From the NCBI GenBank assembly GCA_965601455.1, contig OZ271831.1:3816268-3880267 (forward strand): 64,000 bases of DNA. Reading direction: 5' to 3'. This stretch comes from Cyclobacteriaceae bacterium (GTDB taxonomy: Bacteria > Bacteroidota > Bacteroidia > Cytophagales > Cyclobacteriaceae). Position 1 is the stretch's first letter. Each line of letters starts with the position of its first letter. This document shows positions 9,973 through 55,721 of this stretch, piece after piece. The position numbers and the translations under genes are program-made. A model generated the notes under the pieces. It saw only the letters and a program-made list of their open reading frames with translations. It did not search any database and was not told where the DNA came from.

Positions 9973-10248
9973 GATCTTTCGATTTTTAAATTCAACATCC
10001 TTCTTTCGTGAATTCACGGAGCTTGGACACCGAAGCGAATGAAAAGGTTACAGCTTCAGACAGAATTTTTAGAAAAACACAATTGGACTTAAGAGATTGA
10101 TTATTGATTGAGCACGGGATCTGATTTCCATTGGATTGAAGGCCAAGTAGCGTATTCAATTACGTAGAATGCCCCGGAGATATTTTCGAAAGTATTGCTT
10201 GATTTGACAATCGACTATAATTGAAATACGTATATCGACAGAGAAATA

Positions 10249-11109
10249 GTGACTGTAATGCTAGAAACCTACGTAAGAAAAGTTCTCACACTCTGCTGGC
10301 CCCTTTTATCCGCACTCTTTTTCATCTCATGTGTTGGCGAAAAGGAGGATATACCTTTCATTGACACGCTTCAGTTACCAAGGGAAATTTTTATATTGAA
10401 TGCTGGAATCGGATATTCTAACGGTGAGGAAATAGTAATAGGTGATTCCACCGTAATTACAGTGAACTATCGTGACGAAAAAATACGTTCAGTCACGTTA
10501 GAAAGACGAGGAATTGACTCGGACGATTTTGGTGCTTTTAGTCGCTCGTACGTGTTAAACATCGATACTGAGTACAATAATCGGGAACTTTATAAAATGA
10601 ATCTTTCTGCATTTGATGGTGAACAGAAAGTTCGAATTAGCTACGAAGGAGGTAAACCCTCAATAGTACAAACGTCTATCCAAGGCATCTCCCAGGAATT
10701 CATCATTGAAAAAAGATACTTCTACGATTCCGAAGAAAATCTGACTTCCATAGAGGAATGGAGGAATGATTTCAATGCCGATCTCAGTTTGGACCTTTGG
10801 GAGAGTACTATCCTTACATACCAGGATGGCAATGTAACTGGTATATCCAGGTTTGATGGAAGAAACGGTCAATTGGTGCAGGAAAGCGTACTTACATATG
10901 ACTCAACAAGCAATCCACTTAAAGGTAGACTCGGTCTTTTATTGCCCCCCTTTAATGATTATATCCCCTTGGAGTTTTTCTTAAGTTCTCACCTCGTCAA
11001 GAATTCTGACTTGAATTGTGCGGATCTCGGTTATGAACAAGCTGAAAATGAACTTCAGATATACAGAGATGACTGTTACCGCAAGGAGCAATTTATTTTT
11101 AGATTTTGA
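10249..11109 (+). CDS. Hypothetical lipoprotein
   Basis: It has a lipobox (LFFISC). I recognise no domain. Confidence 0.4.
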   Translation: MTVMLETYVRKVLTLCWPLLSALFFISCVGEKEDIPFIDTLQLPREIFILNAGIGYSNGEEIVIGDSTVITVNYRDEKIRSVTLERRGIDSDDFGAFSRSYVLNIDTEYNNRELYKMNLSAFDGEQKVRISYEGGKPSIVQTSIQGISQEFIIEKRYFYDSEENLTSIEEWRNDFNADLSLDLWESTILTYQDGNVTGISRFDGRNGQLVQESVLTYDSTSNPLKGRLGLLLPPFNDYIPLEFFLSSHLVKNSDLNCADLGYEQAENELQIYRDDCYRKEQFIFRF

Positions 11110-11166
11110 TAATTGAATGTGACTGAAAAAGACAGTGTGTGAGGTTTTCATGGGATAAAAGCATCA

Positions 11167-12195
11167 TCATTCTTCATTTTCTACGCTGCGAACAATTCTA
11201 TTATAAACCCTTTCCAATTGAATCCAGAAACTACGCTTTCCACTGGTGTTCACAAACTGGATAATCACGGCATCCATATCAGCATGATACCGGGCAATGC
11301 TGGTATAGCCCGGTAACCAGCCGGTATGCTCATACTCGTAAATAGTTGAATAGAGAGCTTGCTCTTCCTCCGTAAATAAGGTTCCATCAATTAGTGACCT
11401 CAGAAATGATCCAACGTCCTCCGCTGTTGCCACCATCGATCCACCAGGAAGCTTGTGATCCCAGCTTTTTAGACTGGGTCCCCACTCTTTTAGATATCCC
11501 TCCATCACTGCAGTAGAATCAACCTGGCTGTAAAGGCCAAAAGTGTTTTTCAAGCCAAGTGGAATAAGTATCTCCTCCTTGATATACTGATGATGAGAAT
11601 AGCCAATTACCCTTTCTATTGCTTCAGCGATCAATAAATAATTGGTATTCGAATACTTGTACTTCTTATTAGGTTCAAAATCAGCGGGTTTATCAAAAAC
11701 CAATGCCGCAACGGTGAGATAATCATCATCCGTATCTTCCTCAAAACCGGGTTCATCCCGGTATCCACGGATACCACTTCGATGTTGAAGCATCATTCTC
11801 AACGTTATTTCATCCGCATATTCAATTCTTCCCCTAACTTCAGGAATCAGCTCCGCTAGTGTACTCTCCAGCGATAATTGTTCACTGACGACAAGTTTCG
11901 CTGCTGCTGCTGCAATGTACAGTTTACTAATACTCGCAATCTTGAAGAGTGAACGGGGGTTAGCCGGTATTTGCTCCTCCCGGTTATTGAAGCCAGCGCT
12001 ATAAAAGGATGATTTCCCTGCCTTATTCACATACACAATCATGCCGTCAAATCCACCTTCTATGGCCTTCTGCATTTCCTCCTGAACACTACCCGGGATG
12101 TAAAAAGGATTGTTCGTGCAGCCTGATAGTGAAAAGCAAACCAGTAATATCAAAGGGATTCCCCGGATAAGGACATTTCTTATTCGCATAGTCAT
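11167..12195 (-). CDS. Serine hydrolase, beta-lactamase family, lipoprotein
   Basis: It has a lipobox (FSLSGC), SxxK (ASISKL) and YSN. Confidence 0.8.
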   Translation of the reverse strand: MTMRIRNVLIRGIPLILLVCFSLSGCTNNPFYIPGSVQEEMQKAIEGGFDGMIVYVNKAGKSSFYSAGFNNREEQIPANPRSLFKIASISKLYIAAAAAKLVVSEQLSLESTLAELIPEVRGRIEYADEITLRMMLQHRSGIRGYRDEPGFEEDTDDDYLTVAALVFDKPADFEPNKKYKYSNTNYLLIAEAIERVIGYSHHQYIKEEILIPLGLKNTFGLYSQVDSTAVMEGYLKEWGPSLKSWDHKLPGGSMVATAEDVGSFLRSLIDGTLFTEEEQALYSTIYEYEHTGWLPGYTSIARYHADMDAVIIQFVNTSGKRSFWIQLERVYNRIVRSVENEE

Positions 12196-12245
12196 GCATT
12201 TAATATGGCTAAAGGTACCTGGTTATGTTTTAATCCACTCTTAAA

Positions 12246-13820
12246 TCAGTTCTTCCGCACGGGCAAAGGAATTCCACCAACATCCGCACCAACATCCCGT
12301 GGCTCGGCAAACCAGGCGAGCTTCCCTAATGTGGTCAATCCTGCTGGTAAGTTAATAGCATCCGGATGGGTCTCCATTAACTGAAGAAGCATCGCCTCTC
12401 GCAGTTCAACTGCTACTTCTGTGTTTTGAAGAATCTTGTTTTCGGTTTCACCAGGATCATTAGTTAAATCAAAGAGCCATTCCTGTATTCCCGAAGGTTC
12501 ATTTCCAGTCTTATACTCCAGGCCCAAATCTCTTTTCCCGGTATGAAATACATATTTCCATTCATCTGAGACCATCATTAGGAGATTGTCCTCGAGATAT
12601 TCGGCAAACACATATTCTCGATGATCCCCGGCGCCGATCGTTATTGAATTCCAATGAGAAATACCCGTAGACCCTTTCATCCTATCTACTCCTAATGCGT
12701 CTACCAGGGTACCGGCCAAATCTGTCATGGAGAAAAGGGATTGGGAAACACCTGCCTTGATGGTAGAACCATTAAATAAAAGCGGAACCGAAATGGATTG
12801 TTCCCACATGGTATGCTTCTCTAAGCGACCATGATCATATAATAGGTACCCATTGTCAGACGCATATACTACAAGTGTATTATCGGTGAGTCCAAGATCC
12901 TTCAGAGCTGCAAATAGCTTGCCCAGAGAGGAATCCAGGTATTCAACAGAAGTGAGGTAAGATGCAATCGCACCCTTCTTTTCTCCCGGGGAGAATTGCT
13001 TAAATATTTCCGGAATCCATCTTTCATCTAAAGTAGAATGAGAAGGGATCTCGATTCTTGAGGTATCTATCCGATTGACAAATTCAACAGGAAAATCAAA
13101 TGGTGCATGCGGTTCATGAGGAGCATACCATAGGAAAAATCGGTTGTCCTTGTTTCGATGTAGGAACTGAATCGCCTGATCATTCAGAAACGTTCCACGG
13201 CAATCTTTTTCGTAACAGTCAGCTGGTAAATAGGACGTATTCCAAATTGAGTGGAAGTCTCGGGATTCATAGTCAGCTTGTGTAGCAATCTTTTCGGGAA
13301 TCGATTCTTTTTGGATCTTTCTTCTGTAGTCACCGGTATCAATTATGGTATCGAATCCGAAGGTGGGTAAGTTGTCTTCATAAATATCTCCCCATATCCA
13401 GGAATTGAAATGACTTTTACCAATCAATCCGGTACGAAATTCATGATCCTTGAGGTGTTCCGCGATGGTCTGATTGTTCACATCATTAAATGGAGTAAAA
13501 AGCAAGCTGACTCCCGTTGCATGAGGAAGTTTCCCGGTTAACATGCTTTGCCTTGACGCATTGCAAATCGGTGAATTGCAATAAGCTCTTGAGAAGCTAA
13601 GACTGCTACGAAATAGACTATCGAGGTTTGGGGTCTGTACTAAATCATGATTCCTAAAACCTGATGCGTATTTGCTATGATCATCGGCGAGGATAACTAA
13701 AACATTAGAGTAGGTAAAGGGTTTCTCCGTAGACTCCTCTAGAGCACAGCTCGCTAACATAATAACAAGCATTAGGAATAAGAGACTACTCTTTATGTTA
13801 TTCTTTAAAATGCCAGACAT
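12246..13820 (-). CDS. Sulfatase (arylsulfatase/formylglycine-dependent family), lipoprotein
   Basis: It has a lipobox (MLASC), NVLVILADD, the active-site region SPICNASRQSMLTGK and GKSH. The motif is C-N-A-S-R rather than CxPxR (see findings). Confidence 0.85.
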   Translation of the reverse strand: MSGILKNNIKSSLLFLMLVIMLASCALEESTEKPFTYSNVLVILADDHSKYASGFRNHDLVQTPNLDSLFRSSLSFSRAYCNSPICNASRQSMLTGKLPHATGVSLLFTPFNDVNNQTIAEHLKDHEFRTGLIGKSHFNSWIWGDIYEDNLPTFGFDTIIDTGDYRRKIQKESIPEKIATQADYESRDFHSIWNTSYLPADCYEKDCRGTFLNDQAIQFLHRNKDNRFFLWYAPHEPHAPFDFPVEFVNRIDTSRIEIPSHSTLDERWIPEIFKQFSPGEKKGAIASYLTSVEYLDSSLGKLFAALKDLGLTDNTLVVYASDNGYLLYDHGRLEKHTMWEQSISVPLLFNGSTIKAGVSQSLFSMTDLAGTLVDALGVDRMKGSTGISHWNSITIGAGDHREYVFAEYLEDNLLMMVSDEWKYVFHTGKRDLGLEYKTGNEPSGIQEWLFDLTNDPGETENKILQNTEVAVELREAMLLQLMETHPDAINLPAGLTTLGKLAWFAEPRDVGADVGGIPLPVRKN

Positions 13821-40325: not shown

Positions 40326-40352
40326 AGCCGGAGCATAGCTCTGGCTTTTTTT
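40326..40352 (+). terminator. Rho-independent terminator after yceI-like gene
   Basis: agccggagc-ata-gctctggct followed by tttttt. Confidence 0.6.
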
Positions 40353-40923
40353 ATTTATTCTGTAGCCTTTCAACTGGTATAACAAGGTCTTGCTTTGGAA
40401 TGAACTCTGGTATTCCACCTGGAAATCTACAATACATAATGTATTCCTTTTTCAATCTACCATAGCCTTTTATGATGGTAGATTGTCTACTCTTTTCAAT
40501 CCCGGCGGCCAATCCACCAGTTAATAAGGTCGCTGCACTTATCACAAGAAACCCGGGTTCTCCATGCATCATAGCTCCCAATAATGAGGGTGTTAATGCA
40601 ACCATTGTGAAACCCATAGTTTTCCTTGCCCTATTCTGGACCGGATGAATCTCATAATTCTTGATCTTTCTTTGATTCACCGATTTTATTCCATTCAATT
40701 CCATAACGCAAACTGAATCAGAGTCGAAACTGATTAACTCCCCTTTCACGATTACGTCCCCTAATGCAATTTCTATCCATGACCCGAACGTACTGTTTTC
40801 TATATAGGTATCGGACCGGCTTGAATGAACCGGCACTACCATATTATAATATTTAGCCTCCGGAGAGCAGCTAGATAGAGTGATGTATAGAAGTAGGGAT
40901 AACCTATTTATCCAAGTAATCAT
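40351..40923 (-). CDS. Hypothetical lipoprotein with a glycine-zipper-like membrane segment
   Basis: The ATG at 40923 gives MITWINRLSLLLYITLSSC (lipobox). A later segment reads GFTMVALTPSLLGAMMHGEPGFLVISAATLLTGGLAAG. Confidence 0.4.
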   Translation of the reverse strand: MITWINRLSLLLYITLSSCSPEAKYYNMVVPVHSSRSDTYIENSTFGSWIEIALGDVIVKGELISFDSDSVCVMELNGIKSVNQRKIKNYEIHPVQNRARKTMGFTMVALTPSLLGAMMHGEPGFLVISAATLLTGGLAAGIEKSRQSTIIKGYGRLKKEYIMYCRFPGGIPEFIPKQDLVIPVERLQNK

Positions 40924-42496
40924 CACTATTGAATTTACTTTTCCAGAACAAAGAATCCATCTTATCCTCAACTTTTACATAATCAGGAGTCATCAGTTTT
41001 AACCACTTGTTCGGATTGAATATTAGTGTTCTCACCATATTCTGATCTTCGCATTTTAACCATTCACTTCGCATCCACTCCACGTAATAGCCTTCAGAAC
41101 GTATAAATGGTGTTACACCACTGGGTAATTCAAAAACCAGTAATTGTGAGTCTCCGGGTTGGTTAACCTTATACAAGTCGTTGGAAGTGTATAACCGCAA
41201 GTCTTTTTCACTTGCTTCATAGTTTACCAAAACCTCTTTAGGGTAAATAATGCTGAAATCAAGAGGTGATACTATGGATGCCACCTGAACAGCATCTATT
41301 CTCCACAAACCTTTGGTAAAGGTCAATCTCACTCTTGAGAAGCTTCCGTCTCGTTCCACAGGTAATAAATGACTTTCTGAAGCAATTGGACCTTGTTCGT
41401 TAATTATGCCAATGCTGACCCATTGATTATCCATCCAAACACTTACTTCGATTCCCCCTAAAATATCATAGATGGTCTTCTGTGCGGATCGAACCCTCGG
41501 ATCAGATCGTTCATATTTCGCAATCCATTCACCTATCCTTGAACCCATCTGCCCCATAGCCTCATAAAAGAGAAATGTAGTCATGAGAGATTGCCTTTTG
41601 GTGACTATTACGCTACCAACTTGCCCGTCTTGCTCAGGGAATTCCAAAACGATAGATTCTCTGGTAGCCAGATGTATAGAGTCACTTTTACTTAGATATT
41701 CGCGCTTGTCTATTTTTTGAAGATGAGATAATTCAACTATACTACCACCATCAATACCAATGGCCATTGATGGTTTATTGGTGCCAAGAAACTGGCTTTC
41801 ACCCCAGTATACGTTAAGTTTTTGTGGATTATGCACGCCGAGGATCTCCACCTTTTTGATGTAGTGTGTTTCCATGGCTTCGTTTTTTACTTTGAGTAAA
41901 AGCTCACTGCCACCATCGACATAATTTGGTAGAGGATCGATATCCTCCTCTTCTAAAGAACGCGAAATACTTGATGAGAAACCCTCAGCTTGCAGTATCT
42001 CTTCCCCGTCATTCATTAGATAGAAAGTAGGGCATGAACCAAAACATGACTTTGGATTCATGATGCAATAGATTGCTCCTATACCTGTGAAGGTGGTTAA
42101 GGTCATTAGCATAGGCGAAATCAGGTTCCAGCCTTTGGTCTCATTAACCTCAATCAGGACAATATCATCGAAGTTTAGTGTGATGTTTTCCAAAGACCAT
42201 TTAGTGCCTCCAATTCTTGATCGATTAATCCCGAATTCATAGCCCTTACATATTAATTCCTGATTTTCATGATCAACCACTATCACCTCAGCTACATACA
42301 AGTGTCCTTTTCTATCATGAATTTTAACTTTATCCGGTTTATTAAGAGTATAGCTTTCTTGCCCAATCAGGGATTCAATCTCTTCAACTTCTACCACCGA
42401 TCGATTAACCGCTATTTTGTAGGTACAGGAGTAAACACTCCATATAAAAAAGGCTAAAAAAAGGCCAAAAAGGGAATATTTTGACCAATTAGACAT
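40904..42496 (-). CDS. Hypothetical lipoprotein (530 aa)
   Basis: It has a signal/lipobox (FIWSVYSC) and no recognised domain. Confidence 0.45.
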   Translation of the reverse strand: MSNWSKYSLFGLFLAFFIWSVYSCTYKIAVNRSVVEVEEIESLIGQESYTLNKPDKVKIHDRKGHLYVAEVIVVDHENQELICKGYEFGINRSRIGGTKWSLENITLNFDDIVLIEVNETKGWNLISPMLMTLTTFTGIGAIYCIMNPKSCFGSCPTFYLMNDGEEILQAEGFSSSISRSLEEEDIDPLPNYVDGGSELLLKVKNEAMETHYIKKVEILGVHNPQKLNVYWGESQFLGTNKPSMAIGIDGGSIVELSHLQKIDKREYLSKSDSIHLATRESIVLEFPEQDGQVGSVIVTKRQSLMTTFLFYEAMGQMGSRIGEWIAKYERSDPRVRSAQKTIYDILGGIEVSVWMDNQWVSIGIINEQGPIASESHLLPVERDGSFSRVRLTFTKGLWRIDAVQVASIVSPLDFSIIYPKEVLVNYEASEKDLRLYTSNDLYKVNQPGDSQLLVFELPSGVTPFIRSEGYYVEWMRSEWLKCEDQNMVRTLIFNPNKWLKLMTPDYVKVEDKMDSLFWKSKFNSDDYLDK

Positions 42497-42734: not shown

Positions 42735-44846
42735 ATGATCGAACAAAAAGGTTTTGTCTTGACACAAGAAAATAATTTGCGTAATTTCATTGGGACCAAC
42801 CGGCCTCAACCACCGATGAATCATCCGGAAAAATCCGATCCTGCCAAAGATCATGGAAGTAATGATCCCGTTTCCATGGATGAAGTTTTTCTTGAAAAGA
42901 TCAAAAAGGCTATTGACGAAAACCTTGAAACCAGGAATTTTGGGGTAGACGAACTTGGGAAGGAAATCGGTATGAGCCGTTCGCAGATTCATCGAAAAAT
43001 GCAGGCTCTGGGTGACATCTCACCTTCCAAGTACATCAGAACAAGAAAACTACAAAAAGCTAGAGAATACTTGCAAAAAAACGTAGGCAACGTATCCGAA
43101 ATATCGTTCCGTCTTGGATTTAGTAGCCCAGCCTACTTTACACAAGTATACACCGCTGAATTTGGTTATCCTCCTAGTGAAGAAGAACGAATAAGTCCTG
43201 CGGAAGCAGCAAAACTAATTCTATCGAAAGACGGTAAAGGTTCCACGCGAAAACTGGCCGCGATCATGTTTACGGATATCGTCGGATATACTACGTTGAT
43301 GGGCAAGAACGAACAAAAAGGCCTCGAGATACTTCGCCAGAGTCGTGAAATCCAAAAACCATTAGTAGAAGCGAATGGAGGAAAATGGCTAAAGGAAATG
43401 GGGGATGGTGTGCTCACACAGTTCGATAGCGCATATGATTGTGTACTCTGTGCTCTGCGAATTCAAAGAGCCGCGACCATGGGATTCGAGGCTAAAATTC
43501 GAATAGGTATTCACCTGGGAGACATTACTATCGAAGGCGATGATGTTTTTGGTGACGGAGTTAACATAGCCTCAAGATTGCAGGACATTGCCGATCCGGG
43601 AGGTATCTACATCTCAGAATCTATTCAAAAGGCATTACGGGGTCGATCGGAAATCCAATACCAACACCTAGGTGAGATCCAGCTCAAAAACGTCGATTAC
43701 CTGGTTAACACTTTTTGCCTGGTTGATGAAAGTCTACCCTCCCCTGCCGCATCCAGAATTCAAAAACTACGTGCCTCCAGCATTCGCGACACACATGCCC
43801 CACTATCCAATGTAAATGATGAACTTATCTTGGAAGTTTTTGACGAATTGACCCGGGCCAAACCTTCTGTTAAACGCTACCTCGAGATCCTCGAAGAGGA
43901 GGAGGAAGAACCAGATATTCGGGAGCTGGCGGATCTCATCATTAGAAACTATCCATGGATTATTGGTGTGGAACTCCGTAGGCTATTCTCAGGATCACTG
44001 CGGGCATTGGATAAGGACCGATTAGAACAAATACTCACTACCATCCACCGCTCCTTACAGTTCTTAGCCTATCTCTTAATCATTGAGCTCTACGAAAGAA
44101 TACTGGATGGCTCGATATCCGTCAACCCTGATTTTCAGACCAATTTCAAATCTCGATTCCTGGAACTTTCACATGACGACTATCTGTGGATTATCGCCGA
44201 GACAAACCAGGTAATGAAGGGAATTGACAGGTTCATTCCTGAGCTCTCGGAAAATATTGATGAACAGTTTATCCAAGGACTGGAATTGGAAATCCCAAAA
44301 CGGGACTATACCGGTGGGTTTAAGATAGAATTGAATGAAGAGGAACTGGCAAAAAAATGCTTCGAATACCAGGAAGTACTCACCTTCATTTTAAAACGAC
44401 TGGCTGTCCTTACTCCTTATAAGCTTGTCACTATCAAAGAGATTAAAGTATTAAAGACCCGAAGGGAAAAGGCCCTGTTTGAGCATTGGATGGATATTCT
44501 GAGCAACAACAATTCGGATTTCCGCTCCAAGGAAGAAACATTCGATTCATTCTCGGACAGCAATTCCGTTTTGCTCATGAAAAGTCTGAAACGACCAGAC
44601 CATTTCCTGAATTTATCGCCATTTATTATCGATACTCGGGGTGAATCAATGGATTCGCGGGAAAAGTTTGATCTTAAAAAAGACATATTCGTTTGTGAAG
44701 GACTGGCAAATAACAGCCTTAGATACGTAGGGACCGAAATAGCGGAAGAATGTGATCTTGGAAGCCTAAGCAACTATCAAAAACTGGTAGAGGAATTTCG
44801 GGACATCACGAACCTTGATGGAAGCGCGAAAGGAGGTGAATCATGA
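42735..44846 (+). CDS. AraC-type HTH + class III adenylate/guanylate cyclase domain + C-terminal alpha-helical domain of unknown function
   Basis: The HTH spans about aa 48-147 (GMSRSQIHRKMQALGDISPSKYIRTRKLQKAREYL...ISFRLGFSSPAYFTQVYTAEFGYPPSE). The cyclase spans about aa 173-330 (AAIMFTDIVGYTTLMG, WLKEMGDGVL, IRIGIHLGDI, DDVFGDGVNIASRL). The remaining ~340 aa are helical with no recognised family. Confidence 0.85.
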   Translation: MIEQKGFVLTQENNLRNFIGTNRPQPPMNHPEKSDPAKDHGSNDPVSMDEVFLEKIKKAIDENLETRNFGVDELGKEIGMSRSQIHRKMQALGDISPSKYIRTRKLQKAREYLQKNVGNVSEISFRLGFSSPAYFTQVYTAEFGYPPSEEERISPAEAAKLILSKDGKGSTRKLAAIMFTDIVGYTTLMGKNEQKGLEILRQSREIQKPLVEANGGKWLKEMGDGVLTQFDSAYDCVLCALRIQRAATMGFEAKIRIGIHLGDITIEGDDVFGDGVNIASRLQDIADPGGIYISESIQKALRGRSEIQYQHLGEIQLKNVDYLVNTFCLVDESLPSPAASRIQKLRASSIRDTHAPLSNVNDELILEVFDELTRAKPSVKRYLEILEEEEEEPDIRELADLIIRNYPWIIGVELRRLFSGSLRALDKDRLEQILTTIHRSLQFLAYLLIIELYERILDGSISVNPDFQTNFKSRFLELSHDDYLWIIAETNQVMKGIDRFIPELSENIDEQFIQGLELEIPKRDYTGGFKIELNEEELAKKCFEYQEVLTFILKRLAVLTPYKLVTIKEIKVLKTRREKALFEHWMDILSNNNSDFRSKEETFDSFSDSNSVLLMKSLKRPDHFLNLSPFIIDTRGESMDSREKFDLKKDIFVCEGLANNSLRYVGTEIAEECDLGSLSNYQKLVEEFRDITNLDGSAKGGES

Positions 44847-47737
44847 CTGCTCAGTCTCCATTCAAATTTCTTGATAGTTATACCGAACAGGATCGTGAGA
44901 TATTTTTTGGAAGAGACCAGGAAATTGAGGAAGTCTACAAGAAAGTGTTCCAGGGTCAGACCCTTTTCATCTACGGCGAATCCGGGACCGGCAAATCAAG
45001 TTTGATCAGTTGTGGGCTGGCTAATCGATTCAAGAAATCCGATTGGTTACCCGTTCATGTCCGTCGTGGGGAAAATATCAATGAATCTCTAACACGTGAA
45101 ATAAAGAAAACCGGTTTGACAGACATAAGCCTCAATGGAGACTCAAGGAATAACCTGTTCAAACTTACAAGATCCCTCTATCTGGATTTCTTCAAACCCA
45201 TCTATTTCATTTTTGATCAATTTGAGGAATTATATCTGCTGGGAGATAAAGAGGAATGGGAAGAATTCGTGGGTGGCATTAAAGCACTTTCCGAAAAGGA
45301 ATTGAATGTTCATTTCATCTTTATCATCCGCTCAGAATACCTGCATTTTCTATCCGAATTCGAATACGAGTTACCGGAAATCTTTAACAATAAGATTCGC
45401 GTGGAGAAAATCACTCGAACAAAAGCCAGGGAGTGCATTGAAGGACCGTGCAATGTATTTGACATAGAACTTGAAAAGGACTTCACGGATCAACTTTTTG
45501 ATAAGCTAAGCCCTGACAGCATAGAAGTAGAGCTTACCTATTTGCAGGTTTACCTGGATCGCGTGTATAAGCTTGCAAGTTCTAAAGCCGAGGACGATAA
45601 GGTGGTTTTCTCCAATTCTCTACTGGAGGATATTGGACTCGTGAGTGACGTACTATCTGATTTTCTGGATGAGCAAATTGAGGAAATGCCCAATCAGGAA
45701 TCTGCTCTAAACACACTAAAGGCATTTGTTACGGTTGATGGTACCAAGAAACAGGTGAACACTGAGGAGGTTGTCAGCTTTGCCCAGTCCATAGGGAAGA
45801 GTTTAAATGAGGTACAAGCACAGCAGGTAATCAATGAGTTGCTTGAGAGAAGAATTCTTAAGGAGATTCCGGACCTCAAAAAATTTGAACTTCGGCACGA
45901 TGCGCTTGCCCTGAAGATATATGAGAAGATCACTATTCGTGAACGTGAACTGATCGAGGTTAAGCAATTCCTGGAATATGGACTGGCAGAGTATCAAAAA
46001 CGGAAATTCCTACTTAACGATAAAGACCTGGCATACATCGAACCTCATTTGCCTCAACTCAACCTGAGAGGGGAAATAAAGGAGTTTGTGGACGAAAGCA
46101 TGGATCAGGCCGGCAGAAAGCGAAGAATTCGAAAGCGTGTTATAGCGATTGTTGCCATTATAATTATCCTCCTGATCACCTCTGTAATCGGATTTATACT
46201 TGCCCAACAGCAACGTGAGCAAGCGTTACTCCAAAAAGAAATCGCTGAAGAAAATGCGTATGAGGCAGAAGAGCAGAAAAAGCTCGCAGAAATCAATGCC
46301 TCTTTGGCTGTAGAAGCCCAGGATGAGGCCGAAAAAAATGCCGAAGAAGCTTCCAGGCAGGCATTCATAGCCCAGGAAAATGAACAACTCGCAAAGGAAC
46401 AGGCATCAATCGCAGAACAACAAAGGAGTCTGGCTCAAGAGCAACGAGTAGAAGCAGAATCACAAAGAGAACAGGCTATTGAGCAACGACAAATAGCCGA
46501 AAATCAGCGCCGAAGAGCGGAAGAACAAACAGTAATTGCCCAGGAAGCCCTGCAACAAATAGAGAAATTAAGGATTCTATCAAATGCTGTAAGCCTGGCT
46601 AATAAGTCTATTGCTTTACGACAGGAACCTTTGAAAAGTCAACTGGCCCTTCAAGCCTATTCATTTTACTCTTCTCAGCCTGTCGAGGGCAGAAACTCTT
46701 CAATACTAAATGCCCTGCACTTCGCCATGAAAAGTCAATTTGGGCCCGAGTACAACGTACTTCAGGGACATACGGGTAGAATCAATCAGATTCACTTATC
46801 GAATAATGACTTTTTCTCCCTGGAAGATGCGGGCAAACTACTTCAGTGGACGATGGCTGACGGGAAATTTGAGAGCCACGAGTTCATGAAAATTGAGGAG
46901 ACTTCCGGGATCAGCCGTAGGGTAAACGCATTATCCGAAAATAACGAGGGTCACTTTCTGGTCAGTACAGGATCTAATCTCTTTTGGTACATTCGAGAGG
47001 AGGTATTAACTCCCATCGAACTCAAGCAATTTAAGGGAACAGTTATCAAAATTCTTCCGGGCGATTCGATATGGACCATTTTATCCAGTGATCAGATCGT
47101 CACCCTATCCATTAATGACGACAATTCTTTAAACACCAGGTACCGACAGTTCGAAACTCAAATTGTAGATGCAGCTCGATTCAATGATGAATACTTGCTT
47201 CTTAGCCAGGAAGGGGTAAGTATTTACGACCGAACAAGGGACTCAGTTCGCAATACCAACTATACTCTGGAACCATTTCCAACCAAGATCGCATACTCAG
47301 CTAAAAGAAATGAAGTGGCTATTGGGAACGGCGAAGGACAGGTAATCCTATACAATCCGGATGACCAACAAATCATTGAACGGTTTCCCGGACATACATC
47401 CATCATTTCTGTACTGCAATTCTCAGACACTGACAACAAGCTCATATCAGCGGGATTTGATCGAGTAGTCAATATCTGGGACCTGGAAGACTTTGGCCAG
47501 GAACCGCTTCAATTCGCGGATCATGATCAGTTTGTCACTGCCGTTGGATACAGTTTGGTCAATCAGTTAATCGTGGTTGGTGAAATAGACGGAACCTTAA
47601 ACTACTATAACCTGGACTCCGATGTGTCCTACAAGCGTTTATGCCAATCGGTTGACGAAGCGATGAATGCTGCAACCTGGGAAAGGTATGTCGGAAATGA
47701 ATTTGAATATAACCCCTATAAATGCGAAGAAAAATGA
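44843..47737 (+). CDS. STAND-class P-loop NTPase (nSTAND1-like) - single TM - long coiled coil - WD40 beta-propeller
   Basis: The N-terminus is SPFKFLDSYTEQDREIFFGRDQEIEEV, with Walker A GESGTGKSS and Walker B IYFIFDQFEEL. A winged-helix-like FELRHDALALKIY follows. A basic cluster RKRRIRKR precedes the TM helix VIAIVAIIIILLITSVIGFILA (aa 433-454). An ~125-aa Q/E/A-rich coiled coil comes next. WD40 blades include GHTGRINQIH...LLQW and GHTSIISVLQFSDTDNKLISAGFDRVVNIWDL. The start overlaps the upstream stop (ATGA). Confidence 0.8.
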   Translation: MTAQSPFKFLDSYTEQDREIFFGRDQEIEEVYKKVFQGQTLFIYGESGTGKSSLISCGLANRFKKSDWLPVHVRRGENINESLTREIKKTGLTDISLNGDSRNNLFKLTRSLYLDFFKPIYFIFDQFEELYLLGDKEEWEEFVGGIKALSEKELNVHFIFIIRSEYLHFLSEFEYELPEIFNNKIRVEKITRTKARECIEGPCNVFDIELEKDFTDQLFDKLSPDSIEVELTYLQVYLDRVYKLASSKAEDDKVVFSNSLLEDIGLVSDVLSDFLDEQIEEMPNQESALNTLKAFVTVDGTKKQVNTEEVVSFAQSIGKSLNEVQAQQVINELLERRILKEIPDLKKFELRHDALALKIYEKITIRERELIEVKQFLEYGLAEYQKRKFLLNDKDLAYIEPHLPQLNLRGEIKEFVDESMDQAGRKRRIRKRVIAIVAIIIILLITSVIGFILAQQQREQALLQKEIAEENAYEAEEQKKLAEINASLAVEAQDEAEKNAEEASRQAFIAQENEQLAKEQASIAEQQRSLAQEQRVEAESQREQAIEQRQIAENQRRRAEEQTVIAQEALQQIEKLRILSNAVSLANKSIALRQEPLKSQLALQAYSFYSSQPVEGRNSSILNALHFAMKSQFGPEYNVLQGHTGRINQIHLSNNDFFSLEDAGKLLQWTMADGKFESHEFMKIEETSGISRRVNALSENNEGHFLVSTGSNLFWYIREEVLTPIELKQFKGTVIKILPGDSIWTILSSDQIVTLSINDDNSLNTRYRQFETQIVDAARFNDEYLLLSQEGVSIYDRTRDSVRNTNYTLEPFPTKIAYSAKRNEVAIGNGEGQVILYNPDDQQIIERFPGHTSIISVLQFSDTDNKLISAGFDRVVNIWDLEDFGQEPLQFADHDQFVTAVGYSLVNQLIVVGEIDGTLNYYNLDSDVSYKRLCQSVDEAMNAATWERYVGNEFEYNPYKCEEK

Positions 47738-48768
47738 GAAAATCATCTATCGTTCCCATTTTAATCATCTTACTGGTTCTGGTAGCTAATCCAGCAAAGT
47801 CCCAATGCGGAAAAAACCTGGAGGACGCTAGACGAGCGTATTACAATGGAGATTTCAGATCAGTGGAATCTTTGCTTGAAGACTGCTTGGAAACATTCTC
47901 GGACGAAGAGAAAATCGAAGCATACAAGCTTTTAACCAACATGTATCTCCTTTGGAATAACCAGGAAAAAGCTGATCAATCAATGTTCAGGTTTTTGGAA
48001 TTGAATCCATACTATACCTTGAGGGAGAGCGACCTGGTAGAATTCCAGGAACTGCATAAGGAGTACAAGGTAAAGACCCGGTTCACATACGGATTCAGTG
48101 TTGGATACCTGCATTCGGATTACATCATCATGCAACATCAGAGCCTGGCAGGAACCACTGAGGAGCCAGCGGATTACAAGGAATTTCCGGGGATTATCGT
48201 AGGAGTCACCGGTGATTATCGCTTGTATAAAGATTTCTATGCAAATGTCGGCCTCTTGTATTCACGAAGGAGCATGAGGCAGCAGGAAGAGATTCTCGAA
48301 TACCAAAAGGTAGCCAGCTTCGAGAAAGACCATTTCCTAAACATCCCCCTCCAAATTCGATACATCGCAGATTTTCGTACCATAAAGCCTTTTTTGGGAG
48401 GGGGTTATGGTGCACACATTCTGTTGCAATCCCAGGGAGATATTGATCGGATTCCACTAGAACCCGATTTTCCTAGTATTGTAGGAATAGCCGAGCAGAC
48501 CACTGACTATAACCTCACCAAACAAAGGCGAAAGTTGACGCATAATTGGAATGCCAGTACAGGTGTAATTATCGACTTCAATCAGTTTCTGGTAGAATTA
48601 AAAGCTACCTATCAATTGGGCATTAACAATGAAATCAACAGGAATTACTGGCTGAAGAATACGGAATTAACCGAAGTCTATGCCTTCGTCTCTGATGACT
48701 ATCGGATTGATAGTTACCTGTTTACGATCTCCCTATTAAGAAATATTTCTAACCCCATAAAGAATTGA
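47722..48768 (+). CDS. Secreted TPR-like N-domain + outer-membrane beta-barrel (PorT/OMP_b-brl-like) protein
   Basis: It has a signal peptide (IVPILIILLVLVANPAKSQ). A TPR-like segment follows (ARRAYYNGDFRSVESLLEDCLE...AYKLLTNMYLLWNNQEKADQSMFRFLELNPYY). The rest shows amphipathic beta-strands (FTYGFSVGY, IIVGVTGDYRL, ANVGLLYSR, LNIPLQIRYIA, PFLGGGYGAHILL, FLVELKATYQLGI). An alternative ATG at 47734 gives an ATGA overlap with the upstream stop. Confidence 0.55.
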   Translation: MRRKMRKSSIVPILIILLVLVANPAKSQCGKNLEDARRAYYNGDFRSVESLLEDCLETFSDEEKIEAYKLLTNMYLLWNNQEKADQSMFRFLELNPYYTLRESDLVEFQELHKEYKVKTRFTYGFSVGYLHSDYIIMQHQSLAGTTEEPADYKEFPGIIVGVTGDYRLYKDFYANVGLLYSRRSMRQQEEILEYQKVASFEKDHFLNIPLQIRYIADFRTIKPFLGGGYGAHILLQSQGDIDRIPLEPDFPSIVGIAEQTTDYNLTKQRRKLTHNWNASTGVIIDFNQFLVELKATYQLGINNEINRNYWLKNTELTEVYAFVSDDYRIDSYLFTISLLRNISNPIKN

Positions 48769-48770
48769 TC

Positions 48771-50090
48771 ATGAAAAAGTACATGTACCTATTCTTACTG
48801 ATTTTACTAGTTTCCTGTATTGAAGAATTAGATCCGGTAAATACTAGTTTTGAAAAATTCTACGGATATAACCTTTCATCAGATGACAGTGGATTACTGA
48901 AGCTGGAAAATGGAAACCTTCTGGTTTACGGATCTGCCATACGAACTTCCATGTCAACGTCAGTAACTGACGAAACATTTGCCAGATTATCTACTCTCGC
49001 TCAGGATGCGGAAATGCCATTCTTTATAGAAGTAGATGAAAATGGCAATGAAATCAGGAAAGCCATGTTCCCATTGGGGAATTTCGACTATTCACATAAC
49101 TTCTATGAATTATTTGGGGTTGAAAGTTTAAATACCGAACTGGCTTGGTTTAAGAAAGTAATCCAACTCAATGATGGTTCATTGATGGCGATCACGTCGG
49201 TAGTAACAAACAATTTTTTTTGGGTAGAGGATATAGTACTGATCATTTCTCCAGAGGATTTTCAGGTGAAGGAGCTTTACCTTATGCATAACTCTGAGAC
49301 TGAATTTGTTGAAACTGAATTTGTCCATCGCGGGATTGAAAAATGTCTCAAAAAAGATGATGGCTCAGTACTGTGCTTAACCGATAGTGAATACTATCCT
49401 CCTTACGAGGGAGGATATCGAAAATTCTATTCAATTATTGAATTTGCAGAAGACGGACAAATTAATCGAATATTCGATTTCGACAATGATCTCTCTGGTG
49501 CTTTCTTCATGGACTTCGTTATTGAAAATGAAGGAAATATTACATTGATTCATGGAAATTTCACCAATCCGAACCTCACTTTTGTCAAGGAAATTAACAT
49601 AAATACAGGGAATATACTCAGTGAAAATTCCGTTGAAATCCCTGCCAATTACGATTTCATCCTTAGAGCAAATCACCTCCTCTTACGAACAGAAAATGGG
49701 TATGCAATTCATGCACAAGATCGTGATACGTTTTCTCCGTTATACCTCTTCGACAATTCCTTTACATTATTGGATTCAACCAACTACATAAATAAGCAGG
49801 GAGTTGATGATGTGTGTTACATAAATGGGTTTATCCCTCTCAAGGACGGTGGATTTTGTAGTCTAGGCTACCCTTGCGAAGGGAACTCCGTTATCACAAA
49901 GTTGGACCAAGAAGGAAAAATTTTATGGGAGTTCTATGAAGCTCATAATAACCTGGATGGAAATCTAACCGGGCATTTGATGGAAACTGAAGACGGAGGA
50001 ATACTTCATTTATCCACAAAAAATTTCAACAATTCCGGCGCAAAACTGAGACTTCTTAAATTGGATAGGAATGGAAAAATTAGCAATTAA
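48771..50090 (+). CDS. Hypothetical lipoprotein, possibly beta-propeller-like
   Basis: The ATG at 48771 gives MKKYMYLFLLILLVSC (lipobox). DG-hydrophobic strand motifs recur (NDGSLMAITS, DDGSVLCLTDS, KDGGFCSLGY, EDGGILHLST). Confidence 0.45.
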   Translation: MKKYMYLFLLILLVSCIEELDPVNTSFEKFYGYNLSSDDSGLLKLENGNLLVYGSAIRTSMSTSVTDETFARLSTLAQDAEMPFFIEVDENGNEIRKAMFPLGNFDYSHNFYELFGVESLNTELAWFKKVIQLNDGSLMAITSVVTNNFFWVEDIVLIISPEDFQVKELYLMHNSETEFVETEFVHRGIEKCLKKDDGSVLCLTDSEYYPPYEGGYRKFYSIIEFAEDGQINRIFDFDNDLSGAFFMDFVIENEGNITLIHGNFTNPNLTFVKEININTGNILSENSVEIPANYDFILRANHLLLRTENGYAIHAQDRDTFSPLYLFDNSFTLLDSTNYINKQGVDDVCYINGFIPLKDGGFCSLGYPCEGNSVITKLDQEGKILWEFYEAHNNLDGNLTGHLMETEDGGILHLSTKNFNNSGAKLRLLKLDRNGKISN

Positions 50091-50595
50091 ACTAGTACTC
50101 GTGACTTCTCTTGTATTGAGTTTTGGATGTGACACAAAACTGGATTTAGAAAGAGAACCACTGAACCCATTGCATAATAATTGGCAATTCAATTTCATTC
50201 GAATTGATGATGAATGGCATAGTTTCGTAAATGAAGATTTTGAACCACCCCTATTCGATGAATTGTGGATTGGATGGTATTGGGTTGAATACAATGAAGA
50301 TAACTTTTACGACTTTAGAACAGATCTTTTACCAACTGAATATGGTACCAATGAAAACTATCAACCTGGATACGGGACTTATCAATATTTTCCGGAGGAA
50401 ATGCTATTAATCCATAATCCAGGAATGCCGTATGAAGTTTCCTACAATATCATTGAACTGAGTGATACAATGTTTATCAGGGAATATGAACGAATTATTC
50501 AGGTGGAAAACTTTGATAGTATTCCCATTGGGACTTCCGTTACTTATAGGGAGGTTTTGATTCCAAGAGAAATATACTATTCCGAAGAAGAGTGA
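50071..50595 (+). CDS. Hypothetical small lipoprotein
   Basis: MEKLAIKLVLVTSLVLSFGC (lipobox). It overlaps the upstream gene by 20 nt and is rich in aromatic and acidic residues. Confidence 0.45.
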   Translation: MEKLAIKLVLVTSLVLSFGCDTKLDLEREPLNPLHNNWQFNFIRIDDEWHSFVNEDFEPPLFDELWIGWYWVEYNEDNFYDFRTDLLPTEYGTNENYQPGYGTYQYFPEEMLLIHNPGMPYEVSYNIIELSDTMFIREYERIIQVENFDSIPIGTSVTYREVLIPREIYYSEEE

Positions 50596-50704: not shown

Positions 50705-50746
50705 GTGATTTTCGGTTTTCATCTGACATTCATCGTTCAATTAACC

Positions 50747-50968
50747 ATGAACCAAACAAAAATGAAAACGATGAAAACTTATTCAATTCTACTAACGGCG
50801 ATTCTTACTCTTGGACTTTTTTCTTGTGAACTGGATGATGCTGATATTCAGCGTGAAGATCCTACGGACAACCTTTCTTTCAATGCCTCAGACCGCGTAA
50901 GTGACCAGGACGATTCAGATGACATAAAAGCTAACAGCGGTGGTCATGTCGAAGGGAACTACAAGTGA
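50747..50968 (+). CDS. Small acidic lipoprotein (about 68-73 aa)
   Basis: MNQTKMKTMKTYSILLTAILTLGLFSC (lipobox) is followed by a D/E/S-rich tail. The start could also be the ATG at 50762. The track's GTG at 50705 lies inside the repeat motif. Confidence 0.4.
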   Translation: MNQTKMKTMKTYSILLTAILTLGLFSCELDDADIQREDPTDNLSFNASDRVSDQDDSDDIKANSGGHVEGNYK

Positions 50969-50988: not shown

Positions 50989-51026
50989 AAAAGCTCGAAT
51001 TTCTTAAGAAATTCGAGCTTTTTTTA
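50989..51026. terminator. Bidirectional terminator: 17-bp perfect palindrome abutting the thiL stop
   Basis: aaaagctcgaatttctt|aagaaattcgagctttt, with a T7 run on the plus strand and T4 on the minus strand. Confidence 0.7.
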
Positions 51027-52951: not shown

Positions 52952-53277
52952 TGATTAGTGTTACAGATAAGGCAAAAGAAAGAATAGTTGAACTTAGAAA
53001 AGAAGAAGGGCACGGAATGGATTACAATGTCCGTGTATCGGTAAAAGGTGGAGGTTGTTCTGGTCTGATGTACGACCTCGATTTTGACAATGCAATTTCC
53101 GATGGAGACGATGTATTTGAAGACAAAGGAGTAAAAATCATTGTTGATAAAAGGAGTCTTCTGTACTTGCTTGGAACAACCCTGGAATTCTCTGATGGAT
53201 TAAATGGTAAAGGTTTTCAATTCATCAATCCGAATGCCTCAAGAACTTGCGGCTGTGGAGAAAGCTTTGCGGTCTAA
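52951..53277 (+). CDS. Iron-sulfur cluster insertion/assembly accessory protein (HesB/IscA/ErpA family)
   Basis: It has [11 protein letters not shown] and the C-terminal CGCGESF motif. Confidence 0.9.
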
Positions 53278-53300
53278 ATAAGTTACGAAAACGTTTTAAA

Positions 53301-53331
53301 AGGCCCTCAGGAGTTCCTGAGGGCCTTTTTT
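53301..53331 (+). terminator. Rho-independent terminator
   Basis: aggccctcagg-agtt-cctgagggcct followed by tttttt. Confidence 0.8.
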
Positions 53332-53501
53332 ATTTCCTTTCTCCTTTCACCGAACTATTTAAACCTTTAATTCCCGTACAATCACTGTCTATTCCGGTTC
53401 AATCCAAGTTGTCCCGCCTGATACTTGAAAAATATTCTCTGACTAAGGTCGCTTATACATTTGTAATTGTTATTAAACCGCAAACAACGACCACAGTGCA
53501 A

Positions 53502-55721
53502 ATGCCAGAGAAGAAACAAACCAACAGCAAAGGCTTTCAAAAGAAAGTCTTTAGATGGGGTGTAGGAAACCGGATAAGTGCCGGGTTCTTTTCCCTGATC
53601 ATCATTATTGCTATTAGTGGGGTATATACTTCGACCACGCTCAATAGTAGTATCCGGACGCTCAACCGGATTTCAGAAGAAGTGAATCCAACACTGGAGC
53701 TTCTTAATCAATTTGGTGAAACCATCAAGGATGCCAAGACCTATACTGTTAACTGGGTCTACGTAAGGACCTACCAGAAAGACAAACAAAACCTTCGGGA
53801 AATCCATGCAAGCGTCTACCCGTCTCAGAAGGCAGATCTATTGGAGGTAATCAATAATAACCCTTCAGATAGTTCACTCGCTACTATTGCCGGTATGATG
53901 GACGAGTTTGAGGGCATTTTGGCTGATCAAACTACCATAATGGAATCCCTGTCCAGTGCGATAAACTACGAGGATCCAATGATGCTTTTCATTTGTGAGG
54001 ATCTCGTTGAAAACAGTGTAATACCTACCTCAGATGACCTGCTAAGCCAATTAAATGAAGTGATAAGCATTCAAAATGCAGCTTCTGAAGAAACAAAAGC
54101 TGGTATGCTAGGTTCGTTTCAGCGCACACAATTGATTATACTGATCTTTGGTATTGCAGGAGCTCTCCTTGGACTGGTCATATCCATCATTCTGACCAGG
54201 GGCATCACAACTCCCGTAAACCGCCTGCACAATAAGATCGAACAAATCAGAAAAGGAATTATCCCGGAGGAAATAGAAGACAAATCAAAAGATGAAATTG
54301 GTGAAATGAGCCGTGGAATCAACGCCCTAATTAAGGGATTCCGGTCAACATCTGAATTTGCAAGAGAGATAGGAGTTGGAAACCTGGAAACCGACTACGA
54401 GGCCCTCAGTGAAGACGATGTCCTGGGTCATTCACTTCTATCCATGCGAGATAATCTTAAAAAGGTATTAGGTGAGACTAACACAGTAGTCAGACAGGCC
54501 GGTGAAGAAGGTCAACTTGAGTCCAGGATTGATTTAGCCGGGAAGACAGGGGCTTGGCACAAATTGGGCCAGGCAATAAACAACCTGCTCAACTCTATTG
54601 TCACTCCGATCATGGAGGTCAACAGAATCATGAATCATATTGCACAGGGAGATCTAAGCCACAATTACGAATCTGAGGCAAAAGGAGAAATTCAGACTCT
54701 TGTGACCAATATGAACATGGCAATTGAAAATCTTAATGCACTTCTTCATAGCATAGCCGAAAATGCAGGCATCGTGGGCGAATCCTCCACGGAGATGCTT
54801 AACGGCAGCGCCGAGATGAGTGCGAATACTGGTGAAATTGCTTCCGCAATCAGTCAAATGAGTATCGGAGCACAGAACCAGGTTGGTAAAGTGGACGAAT
54901 CGTCGAGTTTTGTTGAGGCCATTGGAAATTCATCTAGAGAGATGGAATCCAAAGCAACATCAATTAAAGATGCTGCCAGCTCCAGTGTGGAAAGTAGTGA
55001 GAAAGGCAAGGAGCGAGTAGAAAATGTTGTGGCAAATATGGAAGAGATTTCATTTGCGGCCTCAAAAACTCACGAGTCGATATCCATTCTGACTGAAAGA
55101 TCAGGAGAAATTGAAAGAGTCCTAGGTGTCATTACTGACATCTCTTCTCAGACCAACCTACTTGCCTTGAACGCGGCTATCGAAGCGGCACAGGCCGGCG
55201 ATGCCGGTAGAGGTTTCGCAGTGGTTGCGGAGGAAATCAGGAAACTGGCAGAGGACTCAAGAAAATCAGCGAAAGAAATTGAGAAACTGGTAGGCGACGT
55301 ACAAAGTGATACAAAAGAAGCCAGCAACGCCATCGAAACTATGAACAATAGTGTTTCCATTGGTAGTACAGCTTCGAAGGAAGCGGCAGAGGCCTTTAAT
55401 GAAATCCTGCAGTCTACAAGCGAAACACTGGAGCTTTCAGAAGAGATCGTTTCCAGTGCTAAACAGCAAATTGATAACTCAAATAATATTGCAAGCATCA
55501 CGGAAAGCATCGTGGTGATCGCCGAACAGACGGCTACCGGAACTGAGGAGATTGCAAGCTCAGCCTCCGAATTATCCAACGGTATGCAGAACTATAACAC
55601 CAAGTCCAAGCAGTTAACGATGGTCGCATCGTCCTTGAACGAAAGTGTATCCAAGTTCAAGCTGTCTACTTCACAGAAAGAAGTGAATGGTCAGGAACTT
55701 GATGAATTTGAATTAGTATAA
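53502..55721 (+). CDS. Methyl-accepting chemotaxis protein-type transducer (periplasmic sensor, 2 TM, two HAMP-like modules, MCP signalling domain)
   Basis: The ATG at 53502 ([12 protein letters not shown]...) lies downstream of the terminator. TM1 is [15 protein letters not shown] and TM2 is [21 protein letters not shown]. The HAMP module reads [14 protein letters not shown]...[14 protein letters not shown]. The signalling hairpin is [37 protein letters not shown]. Confidence 0.85.

Follow-up and report, generated by a model that had tools for sequence, protein, structure and literature searches.

We analyzed a 64,000-nucleotide stretch of DNA (hereafter the window) from a Cyclobacteriaceae bacterium (GenBank assembly GCA_965601455.1, contig OZ271831.1, positions 3,816,268 to 3,880,267 of the forward strand), and found in it a gene whose product is best explained as a bitopic inner-membrane receptor of the STAND (NLR-like) class. 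In this protein, an nSTAND1 NTPase is followed by a single transmembrane (TM) helix, a long stalk with an alanine at every seventh position, and a WD40 beta-propeller that is predicted to be periplasmic. STAND/NLR proteins are known from textbooks as sensors inside the cells of animals, plants, fungi, and bacteria, and in the large Bacteroidota family to which this protein belongs, the sensor appears to lie outside the cytoplasm, joined to the switch by a rigid stalk whose length is quantized. The gene and the parts of its product are as follows (positions in the window, residues of the protein):

44843 to 47737, plus strand: the nSTAND1-TM-stalk-WD40 gene, an intact open reading frame (ORF) of 964 residues
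44858 to 45910, plus strand: STAND NTPase module, predicted cytoplasmic, residues 6-356 (Pfam nSTAND1)
46112 to 46138, plus strand: basic cluster GRKRRIRKR, residues 424-432, on the predicted cytoplasmic side of the TM helix
46139 to 46204, plus strand: sole TM helix, residues 433-454 (22 residues), from hydropathy
46205 to 46615, plus strand: heptad stalk, predicted periplasmic, residues 455-591, with Ala at every seventh residue
46625 to 46741, plus strand: helical cap, residues 595-633 (AlphaFold2 helices 595-610 and 619-633)
46781 to 47611, plus strand: seven-bladed WD40 beta-propeller, residues 647-923 (AlphaFold2 and Pfam)
47618 to 47734, plus strand: C-terminal tail, residues 926-964, with the covarying Cys934 and Cys961 and an invariant Trp946

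The ORF, the two Walker motifs, the basic cluster, and the TM helix all lie where the first-pass annotation of the window had placed them. Pfam nSTAND1 (PF20703) matches residues 6-356 with 132.4 bits (E 4e-38; curated cut-off 27.1 bits), and the NTPase thus begins at residue 6 with no domain N-terminal to it. It contains Walker A (GESGTGKSS, residues 45-53), Walker B (FIFDQFEEL, residues 122-130, with the family form hhhhDQFEEL), a sensor Arg163, a GxP motif (201-202), and an RHD motif in the winged helix (351-353), all of which are conserved at 94-100% in 91 full-length homologs. This motif set fits an ADP/ATP switch, for which NTP hydrolysis and oligomerization are predicted, and by its position the winged-helix R-H-D may correspond to the MHD histidine of NB-ARC proteins. 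The earlier assignment of the NTPase to the cytoplasm is supported by its need for cytoplasmic nucleotide. The AlphaFold2 model of the whole protein, built from the 91-sequence alignment, has a mean predicted local distance difference test score (pLDDT) of 86.9 and shows alpha/beta NTPase, helical, and winged-helix domains in the N-terminal half, a helix that runs from residue 410 through the TM segment into the stalk, a second long helix up to residue 591, and two short helices at the C-terminal end. In a Foldseek search, full-length Apaf-1 was aligned with this model over about 1000 columns.

A search with the NTPase alone as the query defined a family of 1067 clusters (at 50% identity) at E <= 1e-30, and of 5345 clusters at E <= 1e-10. 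In the neighborhood scan, which was limited to one genome per species, more than 532 loci contained relatives and 77 were kept, 76 of them labeled as Bacteroidota lineages and one as a Chloroflexota metagenome-assembled genome (MAG). Several of these genomes carry more than one family copy, and the closest genomic relative of the window protein (57% identity) is found in a Roseivirgaceae MAG. The NTPase core is the part that the homologs share most closely with the window protein (mean identity 57%), followed by the stalk (33%) and by the propeller, the most divergent part (18%); conservation thus drops steadily from the cytoplasmic to the distal end of the protein, as expected if a constant switch is joined to a diversifying ligand-binding module.

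Several independent features indicate on which side of the membrane the two halves of the protein lie. The TM segment reaches a Kyte-Doolittle maximum of 3.21 (19-residue window), the next-best value being 1.48 inside a propeller blade/strand, and a TM helix is found in the corresponding position in 119 of 120 close homologs and, directly after the NTPase, in 121 of 135 further top representatives of the family (about 95% overall). Lys and Arg number 7 in the 15 residues before the helix and 2 in the 15 after it (family means 6.9 and 3.2), and they are more frequent before than after the helix in 237 of 242 family members. With a single span and an NTPase that needs cytoplasmic nucleotide, the two halves come to lie on opposite sides of the membrane. 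In the C-terminal tail, Cys934 and Cys961 are both present in 81 of the 91 homologs, both absent in 10, and never found singly; the ten homologs without the pair belong to at least 4 lineages whose nearest neighbors keep it. As the two residues are kept or lost only jointly, they behave as expected of a disulfide, which would place the C-terminus in an oxidizing compartment.

Close paralogs provide a further indication, in that they keep the NTPase, the basic cluster, and the TM helix, while the stalk and propeller are replaced by other domains. Among 40 such non-WD40 ectodomains, the third GldM domain was found 21 times, the fourth 14 times, the first 4 times, and the second 2 times, and others have TPR or an FGE-sulfatase/C-lectin-type domain. 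Solved GldM structures (PDB 6ey4 and 7sb2) are annotated as a periplasmic domain, and since GldM domains are periplasmic, their occurrence as a swapped ectodomain in the same position supports a periplasmic location of the C-terminal half. GldM domains occur in paralogs only, and none was found by Pfam in the window protein itself. Taken with the linkage to an outer-membrane barrel gene described below, the charge bias, the cysteine covariation, and the GldM swaps support the N-in/C-out reading of the first-pass annotation, and we consider a periplasmic WD40 domain very likely for the window protein. The STAND-GldM fusions comprise the representatives P0070, P0072, P0073, P0249, and 17 others, and such a fusion is encoded at positions 10001-12472 of locus L078.

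Between the TM helix and the propeller, residues 455-595 contain neither Gly nor Pro, and 79% of them are Glu, Gln, Ala, Lys, Arg, or Leu. Hydrophobic and small residues recur here with a periodicity of 3.5 residues, the observed power of which was reached in only 0.15% of shuffled sequences. In the window protein, Ala ends each of 16 consecutive heptads without a phase shift; at every heptad, this position is Ala in 86-100% of the 91 homologs, and the position four residues after each of these Ala is usually Gln. Measured from the TM helix to its end, the stalk is 127/128, 134/135, 141/142, 148, or 155 residues long throughout the family, with no other lengths observed, and insertions at three separate places in the stalk are blocks of exactly seven residues, with no Gly/Pro cluster that could serve as a turn. 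The window stalk itself carries one extra heptad (residues 502-508, positions 46346-46366) that has no counterpart in 95% of its relatives. These features support a role of the stalk as a spacer of constrained register. The heptad-like stretch proposed earlier is upheld by its periodicity and its conservation across homologs. Its length had been slightly underestimated at about 125 residues and 18-19 nm: a continuous helix of about 137 residues (455-591) at about 0.15 nm per residue would, if fully extended, measure roughly 20 nm. An ER/K single alpha-helix was also considered, for which the spacing of Glu to Lys/Arg at i+3/i+4 is present, but the near-invariant Ala at one heptad position and the strict seven-residue indels point to a packing interface rather than to such a helix.

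Distal to the stalk, a helical cap with a conserved LLA.QAY motif (alignment consensus) leads to the propeller, whose position agrees with the first-pass annotation. Pfam WD40 (PF00400) is matched with 41.4 bits (cut-off 27), and many propeller families match between about residues 690 and 946. In the AlphaFold2 model, 27 strands form seven blades at residues 647-923, mostly with pLDDT above 85, and Foldseek matches the propeller to seven-bladed WD40 proteins, including WDR61 with a target-normalized template modeling score of 0.81.

Immediately downstream of the STAND gene are three genes for predicted envelope proteins, followed by a candidate terminator:

47722 to 48768, plus strand: secreted TPR-like region (residues about 28-105) and outer-membrane beta-barrel (residues about 111-348), PF13568
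48765 to 50090, plus strand: predicted lipoprotein of 441 residues with an LLVSC lipobox and repeated DG-containing motifs, from sequence
50071 to 50595, plus strand: predicted lipoprotein of 174 residues with an LSFGC lipobox, from sequence
50989 to 51022, plus strand: strong intrinsic-terminator-like hairpin with a 15-bp stem and a T run

The barrel gene overlaps the STAND gene by 16 nt, and its product has an N-terminal hydrophobic leader and matches PF13568 (OMP_b-brl_2) with 35.2 bits (cut-off 27). It is weakly similar to PorT/SprT and TssQ, although with the PorT/SprT equivalog profile it scores 28 bits, below the cut-off of 125. Of the genes compared, 34 encode an Ala-heptad stalk and 25 do not, and the barrel gene follows 25 of the 34 and none of the 25 (Fisher p = 2e-9). 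This linkage supports the earlier proposal that the propeller sits near the outer membrane, with an inner-membrane anchor and a stalk predicted to measure roughly 20 nm, and the propeller would presumably be in physical contact with the barrel protein. The TPR/barrel gene and two lipobox genes to which that proposal had referred are indeed present and translationally coupled. Sequence similarity to the 441-residue lipoprotein was found only in loci L011, L008, and L009; the 174-residue lipoprotein has conserved counterparts in L011 and L039 and a positional one in L080. A third lipobox ORF (50705-50968, LFSC) lies farther downstream, and in all three the lipobox cysteine is followed by acidic residues. 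None of the three had a Pfam match; their products may be surface-exposed lipoproteins, and the DG-containing repeats of the 441-residue protein are suggestive of a propeller.

Upstream of the STAND gene lies a gene whose product combines two known domains with a conserved region, tentatively referred to as X:

42735 to 44846, plus strand: upstream partner gene, 703 residues, helix-turn-helix (HTH) + cyclase + X
42960 to 43181, plus strand: AraC-type HTH, residues 76-149 (Pfam HTH_18, 60 bits)
43257 to 43691, plus strand: class III nucleotide cyclase, residues 175-319 (Pfam Guanylate_cyc PF00211, 51 bits, cut-off 21.9)
43791 to 44825, plus strand: conserved X domain, residues about 353-697 (about 345 residues; homologs P0125-P0240)

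The stop codon of this gene overlaps the ATG of the STAND gene as ATGA. A strong Shine-Dalgarno-like AAAGGAGGTGAATC occupies positions 44826-44842, immediately 5' of the STAND ATG and within the end of the upstream gene. Shine-Dalgarno-like sites are seldom used in Bacteroidota, and this one, with AGGAGG ahead of the ATG, could reflect translational coupling. The five genes of the window operon overlap or abut throughout, and the same five-gene order is found in L080, from a 5.9-Mb Cytophagales genome, as HTH-X, STAND, barrel, a 432-residue protein, and a 180-residue protein. The hairpin at 50989-51022 probably ends the operon.

In about 55-60 of the 77 loci, the first nSTAND1 gene is preceded by X in the same orientation. 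X is usually free-standing and about 345 residues long, while it is fused to an N-terminal AraC HTH in several Cytophagales and relatives (L006-L009, L039, and L080), and to both an HTH and a class III cyclase in the window and in L011. In the window, the cyclase retains the metal-binding aspartates of its FTD and GDG motifs and the Asn/Arg motif VNIASR (aligned with 3mr7 and Ma1120; 3mr7 is also its best PDB match, E 9e-27), and it is apparently catalytically competent as judged by these residues. The alignment of 114 X sequences has 46 invariant columns, and free-standing X carries a near-invariant ALDFWVPERNEIGHYQINL motif, with R[NDH]E[ILV]xH in 110 of 111 copies. AlphaFold2 confidently predicts X as a helical N-terminal and a beta-rich C-terminal domain (pLDDT 85.5, predicted template modeling score 0.86), for which Foldseek found no fold match (best E 0.28 in PDB and 0.11 in BFVD).

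Similar candidate outputs recur elsewhere in the family. Genes encoding TPR with a class III cyclase, or TPR with SpoIIE (PP2C), are found at L078 12491-14545, L081 24076 to the end, and L082 15818-17871, in each case on the same strand as, and just downstream of, family members, and these recurring cyclase/PP2C neighbors strengthen the link to a second-messenger or regulatory output. From the gene order and the fusions, X would be the output partner of the NTPase. A single X gene precedes between one and four nSTAND1-TM genes, which are arranged in tandem and differ in their ectodomains; L081, for example, contains, in this order, X, a 482-residue unknown protein, and four sensor genes, with three small unrelated ORFs scattered among the latter. 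Across such tandem arrays (L029/L081, L074, L030, and L032), GldM-like, single-propeller, and double-propeller ectodomains were observed.

Two domain assignments were considered and dropped. The RNEIGH motif of X resembles the Rx4-6H signature of HEPN domains, which at present is speculation, and X was not retained as a HEPN RNase, given that it matched nothing in Pfam, PADLOC, PDB, or Foldseek searches and that its window copy lacks the motif. By eye, a TIR domain seemed to be present in the N-terminal extension of P0177, but Pfam gave no match there.

Based on these observations, we propose the following model. The nSTAND1 NTPase (residues 1 to about 420) would lie in the cytoplasm, and one helix would run from the juxtamembrane region through residues 433-454 into the stalk. 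The stalk would cross the periplasm with the propeller and a disulfide-stapled tail at its far end, where the propeller would meet the TPR region of the outer-membrane barrel protein and perhaps also the two lipoproteins. At this propeller/barrel end, a ligand or a perturbation of the envelope would be sensed, and the signal would travel along the rigid stalk and through the TM helix, so that the NTPase would go from an ADP-locked to an ATP-bound, probably oligomeric state and engage the cytoplasmic, translationally coupled X. The output in the window would be a cyclic nucleotide made by the fused cyclase and/or transcription through the AraC HTH. Both the outside-in direction of signaling and the identity of the signal are presumptive here, and that the complete mechanism operates, from a signal at the outer envelope to cyclic nucleotide and transcriptional output, we consider somewhat probable. 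A broader and more tentative reading, which we regard as possible though not the likelier case, is that the X/nSTAND1-TM-ectodomain/barrel cassette represents an undescribed trans-envelope signaling class, in which an NLR-like transmembrane receptor uses a heptad ruler to dock its propeller on the barrel, and X relays to interchangeable outputs, namely its own RNEIGH site, the AraC HTH, the cyclase, or PP2C.

Several points weigh against this receptor model. The AlphaFold2 monomer is non-helical at residues 482-509 (pLDDT 50-60), splitting the stalk into 410-481 and 510-591; however, this break spans the gap-rich insertion specific to the window protein, and we take its low confidence to mean that information is missing there, not that the stalk forms a hairpin. 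The heptad core positions are occupied by Ala and Gln, which make a weak hydrophobic core. The topology of every family member is deduced by sequence comparison, and the propeller is presumed to have a ligand. Many members have only an approximately 29-residue linker and no barrel gene, and reaching the outer membrane is therefore not universal in the family. X had no match in Pfam, PADLOC, or PDB sequences or folds, so that its role as the output is drawn from gene order and fusions. Finally, the ALDFWVPERNEIGHYQINL motif is degenerate in the window X, which has GLELEIPKRDYTGGFKIEL there (KRDYTGG at the R..H site); the motif is likewise lost in the cyclase-fused P0121 and in P0177, and all three degenerate copies carry extra N-terminal domains.

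One alternative is an anti-phage or inter-bacterial conflict system, in which the propellers detect phage parts or a breach of the envelope, the STAND protein oligomerizes, and free-standing X is a toxic effector (e.g., an RNase acting through R-N-E-I-G-H), the window copy being a domesticated signaling derivative. STAND proteins with repeats are the classic form of immune sensor in bacteria (Kaur et al., 2021; PMC8195603), one constant X is followed by up to four sensor paralogs with different ectodomains, the sensor is the most divergent part of the protein, the HEPN-like motif is kept in free-standing X and lost in the three copies with extra domains, and the cyclase gives a weak Pycsar-cyclase match (E 1e-7, PADLOC). 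However, among the PADLOC defense models (Avs, bNACHT, and others), the STAND protein gave only a marginal mad8 match (E 9e-4, residues 20-56) and X gave none, the X model has neither a HEPN nor another nuclease fold (Foldseek against PDB and BFVD), and AraC HTH, cyclase, and PP2C/SpoIIE are typical signaling outputs. The genomic context is one of housekeeping genes in the window, L078, L080, L081, and L082 (although L082 adjoins a HigB toxin/HTH_3 pair), and the GC content shows no sign of recent transfer. On balance, we regard a defense function as unlikely. We consider it quite unlikely that the protein is instead an inside-out structural tether or assembly factor like TolA or GldM/PorM, whose NTPase controls a periplasm-spanning strut. 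GldM domains 1-4 do replace the stalk and propeller in paralogs, the barrel is weakly PorT/SprT-like, the heptad-quantized length resembles that of a spacer or ruler, and the window protein has low-scoring matches to the gliding protein GltJ and similar low-complexity periplasmic proteins. Yet STAND NTPases are slow switches rather than motors, the invariant RHD, GxP, and sensor Arg fit an ADP/ATP switch, and the tight linkage of X, together with the HTH and cyclase domains fused to it, indicates an output in the cytoplasm; moreover, apart from a faint GldL_N match in L081, no type IX secretion or gliding genes are adjacent in the window, L078, L080, L081, or L082.

The two remaining alternatives concern the geometry of the protein. 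If the topology is right but the stalk folds as an antiparallel helical hairpin, the propeller would lie at the outer face of the inner membrane, where the short-linker relatives place theirs. Ala at every seventh position is a hallmark of close-packed, often antiparallel, "Alacoil" helix pairs, which the Ala spacing of the stalk matches, and the two helices of the AlphaFold2 monomer, separated by a low-confidence non-helical stretch, would form the arms. We nevertheless hold this arrangement to be decidedly improbable, as the modeled break coincides with the seven-residue insertion of the window protein (95% gaps in the alignment), no conserved Gly/Pro or other turn signal is present at mid-stalk, a loop would not need indels of exactly seven residues at three places, and the presence of the stalk predicts that of an outer-membrane barrel gene. 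The other alternative is that the hydrophobic segment crosses the membrane in reverse or not at all, leaving the WD40 domain in the cytoplasm as in other STAND proteins. To our knowledge, all experimentally characterized STAND/NLR sensors are cytosolic, and the WD40 domain and helical cap align with the cytosolic Apaf-1. Against this stand the hydropathy and length of the segment, its retention in nearly all relatives, the separation of the two halves by a single span when the NTPase needs cytoplasmic nucleotide, and the charge bias, cysteine covariation, GldM swaps, and barrel linkage, all of which favor a periplasmic C-terminus, and a cytoplasmic propeller is in our view hardly credible.

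The predicted trans-envelope receptor can be compared with several characterized systems. The nSTAND1 clade was named by Kaur, Iyer, Burroughs, and Aravind in cytoplasmic conflict systems (eLife, 2021; PMC8195603), and the window protein resembles it in its strong NTPase match, intact switch motifs, and C-terminal WD40 domain. Unlike the described members, which are treated as cytoplasmic conflict proteins with N-terminal effector or adaptor domains, it has no N-terminal domain, a TM helix between the NTPase and the sensor, and a separate X upstream. (nSTAND1 is said to occur in EACC1 conflict systems, but that candidate proved to be an actinobacterial single-TM domain paired with caspases and unrelated.) Sensors of the Apaf-1, Avs, and NACHT types likewise combine an NTPase and a winged helix with a propeller or repeat sensor, and are expected to undergo ligand-induced nucleotide exchange and oligomerization, but they are soluble, with cytosolic ligands and an effector in cis, whereas the sensor here is predicted to be periplasmic. 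MalT/AfsR-type regulators share a STAND NTPase that gates a DNA-binding output, yet these are soluble, with a cytoplasmic sensor and the HTH in the same polypeptide.

The closest functional analogy is FecA-FecR-FecI, in which a barrel with a periplasmic N-terminal domain, a bitopic N-in/C-out protein, and a cytoplasmic DNA-binding output are also combined. There is no sequence relationship between the two, and an NTP switch would here stand in place of an anti-sigma factor, a small PF13568 barrel in place of a TonB-dependent transporter, and an AraC HTH with a cyclase in place of an extracytoplasmic function (ECF) sigma factor. Bacteroides hybrid two-component systems are also close, in that they couple a periplasmic beta-propeller sensor to an AraC-type HTH output; they differ in using a phosphorelay rather than a STAND switch, and the HTH is here on a separate polypeptide and the WD40 propeller on a long stalk. 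GldM/PorM and TolA have a similar N-in single-pass anchor with an elongated region able to reach outer-membrane partners, but their energy comes from proton-motive-force stators and they have hardly any cytoplasmic domain, while the window protein has a 420-residue cytoplasmic NTPase and no GldM domain.

In the open full-text literature (most subscription journals lay outside the search), we found no prior description of a STAND protein with a TM helix, stalk, and periplasmic propeller, of a STAND-GldM fusion, of X, or of the linkage to the barrel. The nearest precedent is a study of diversity-generating retroelements that predicted one NACHT/C-lectin target protein to be periplasmic (PMC10907252). 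There is a realistic chance that the trans-envelope STAND cassette is a new class of envelope signaling system; NLR logic would then be usable for transmembrane, and probably trans-envelope, signaling, which suggests a previously undescribed route for signals across the Bacteroidota cell envelope. If true, this would add a further paradigm of bacterial transmembrane signaling to two-component systems, ECF/anti-sigma pairs, and chemoreceptors, and would extend NLR-type sensing for the first time to a site beyond the cytoplasm. The family would also offer a tractable system for studying how a nucleotide switch is reached by a conformational signal that travels over a coiled coil of about 20 nm and one TM helix, a natural "ruler" for asking how important the width of the periplasm is in Bacteroidota, and two uncharacterized partners, namely X (with no known fold) and the TPR-barrel outer-membrane protein. 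If the family is immune instead, it would represent a defense sensor able to detect an attack that has not yet reached the cytoplasm.

The surroundings of the operon are unremarkable in GC content and consist of housekeeping genes, including those for an AIR-synthase-family kinase, a glyoxalase-fold protein, Fe-S assembly, YceI, and DUF3109. A sigma-70 promoter scan found fewer sites than in shuffled controls, this consensus being uninformative for Bacteroidota. Upstream of the operon, two overlapping ORFs on the minus strand (40904-42496, 530 residues, and 40351-40971, 206 residues) have neither a Pfam match nor a counterpart in the 77 related loci. A gene for a 23S rRNA-intervening-sequence protein (PF05635; 38113-38454, minus strand) lies in an ordinary context beside DUF3109 and a protein with a TonB C-terminal domain. 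Downstream, positions 53247-55721 (plus strand) encode an 824-residue methyl-accepting chemotaxis protein with several HAMP domains and an MCP signaling domain, which is notable for a member of the Cytophagales.

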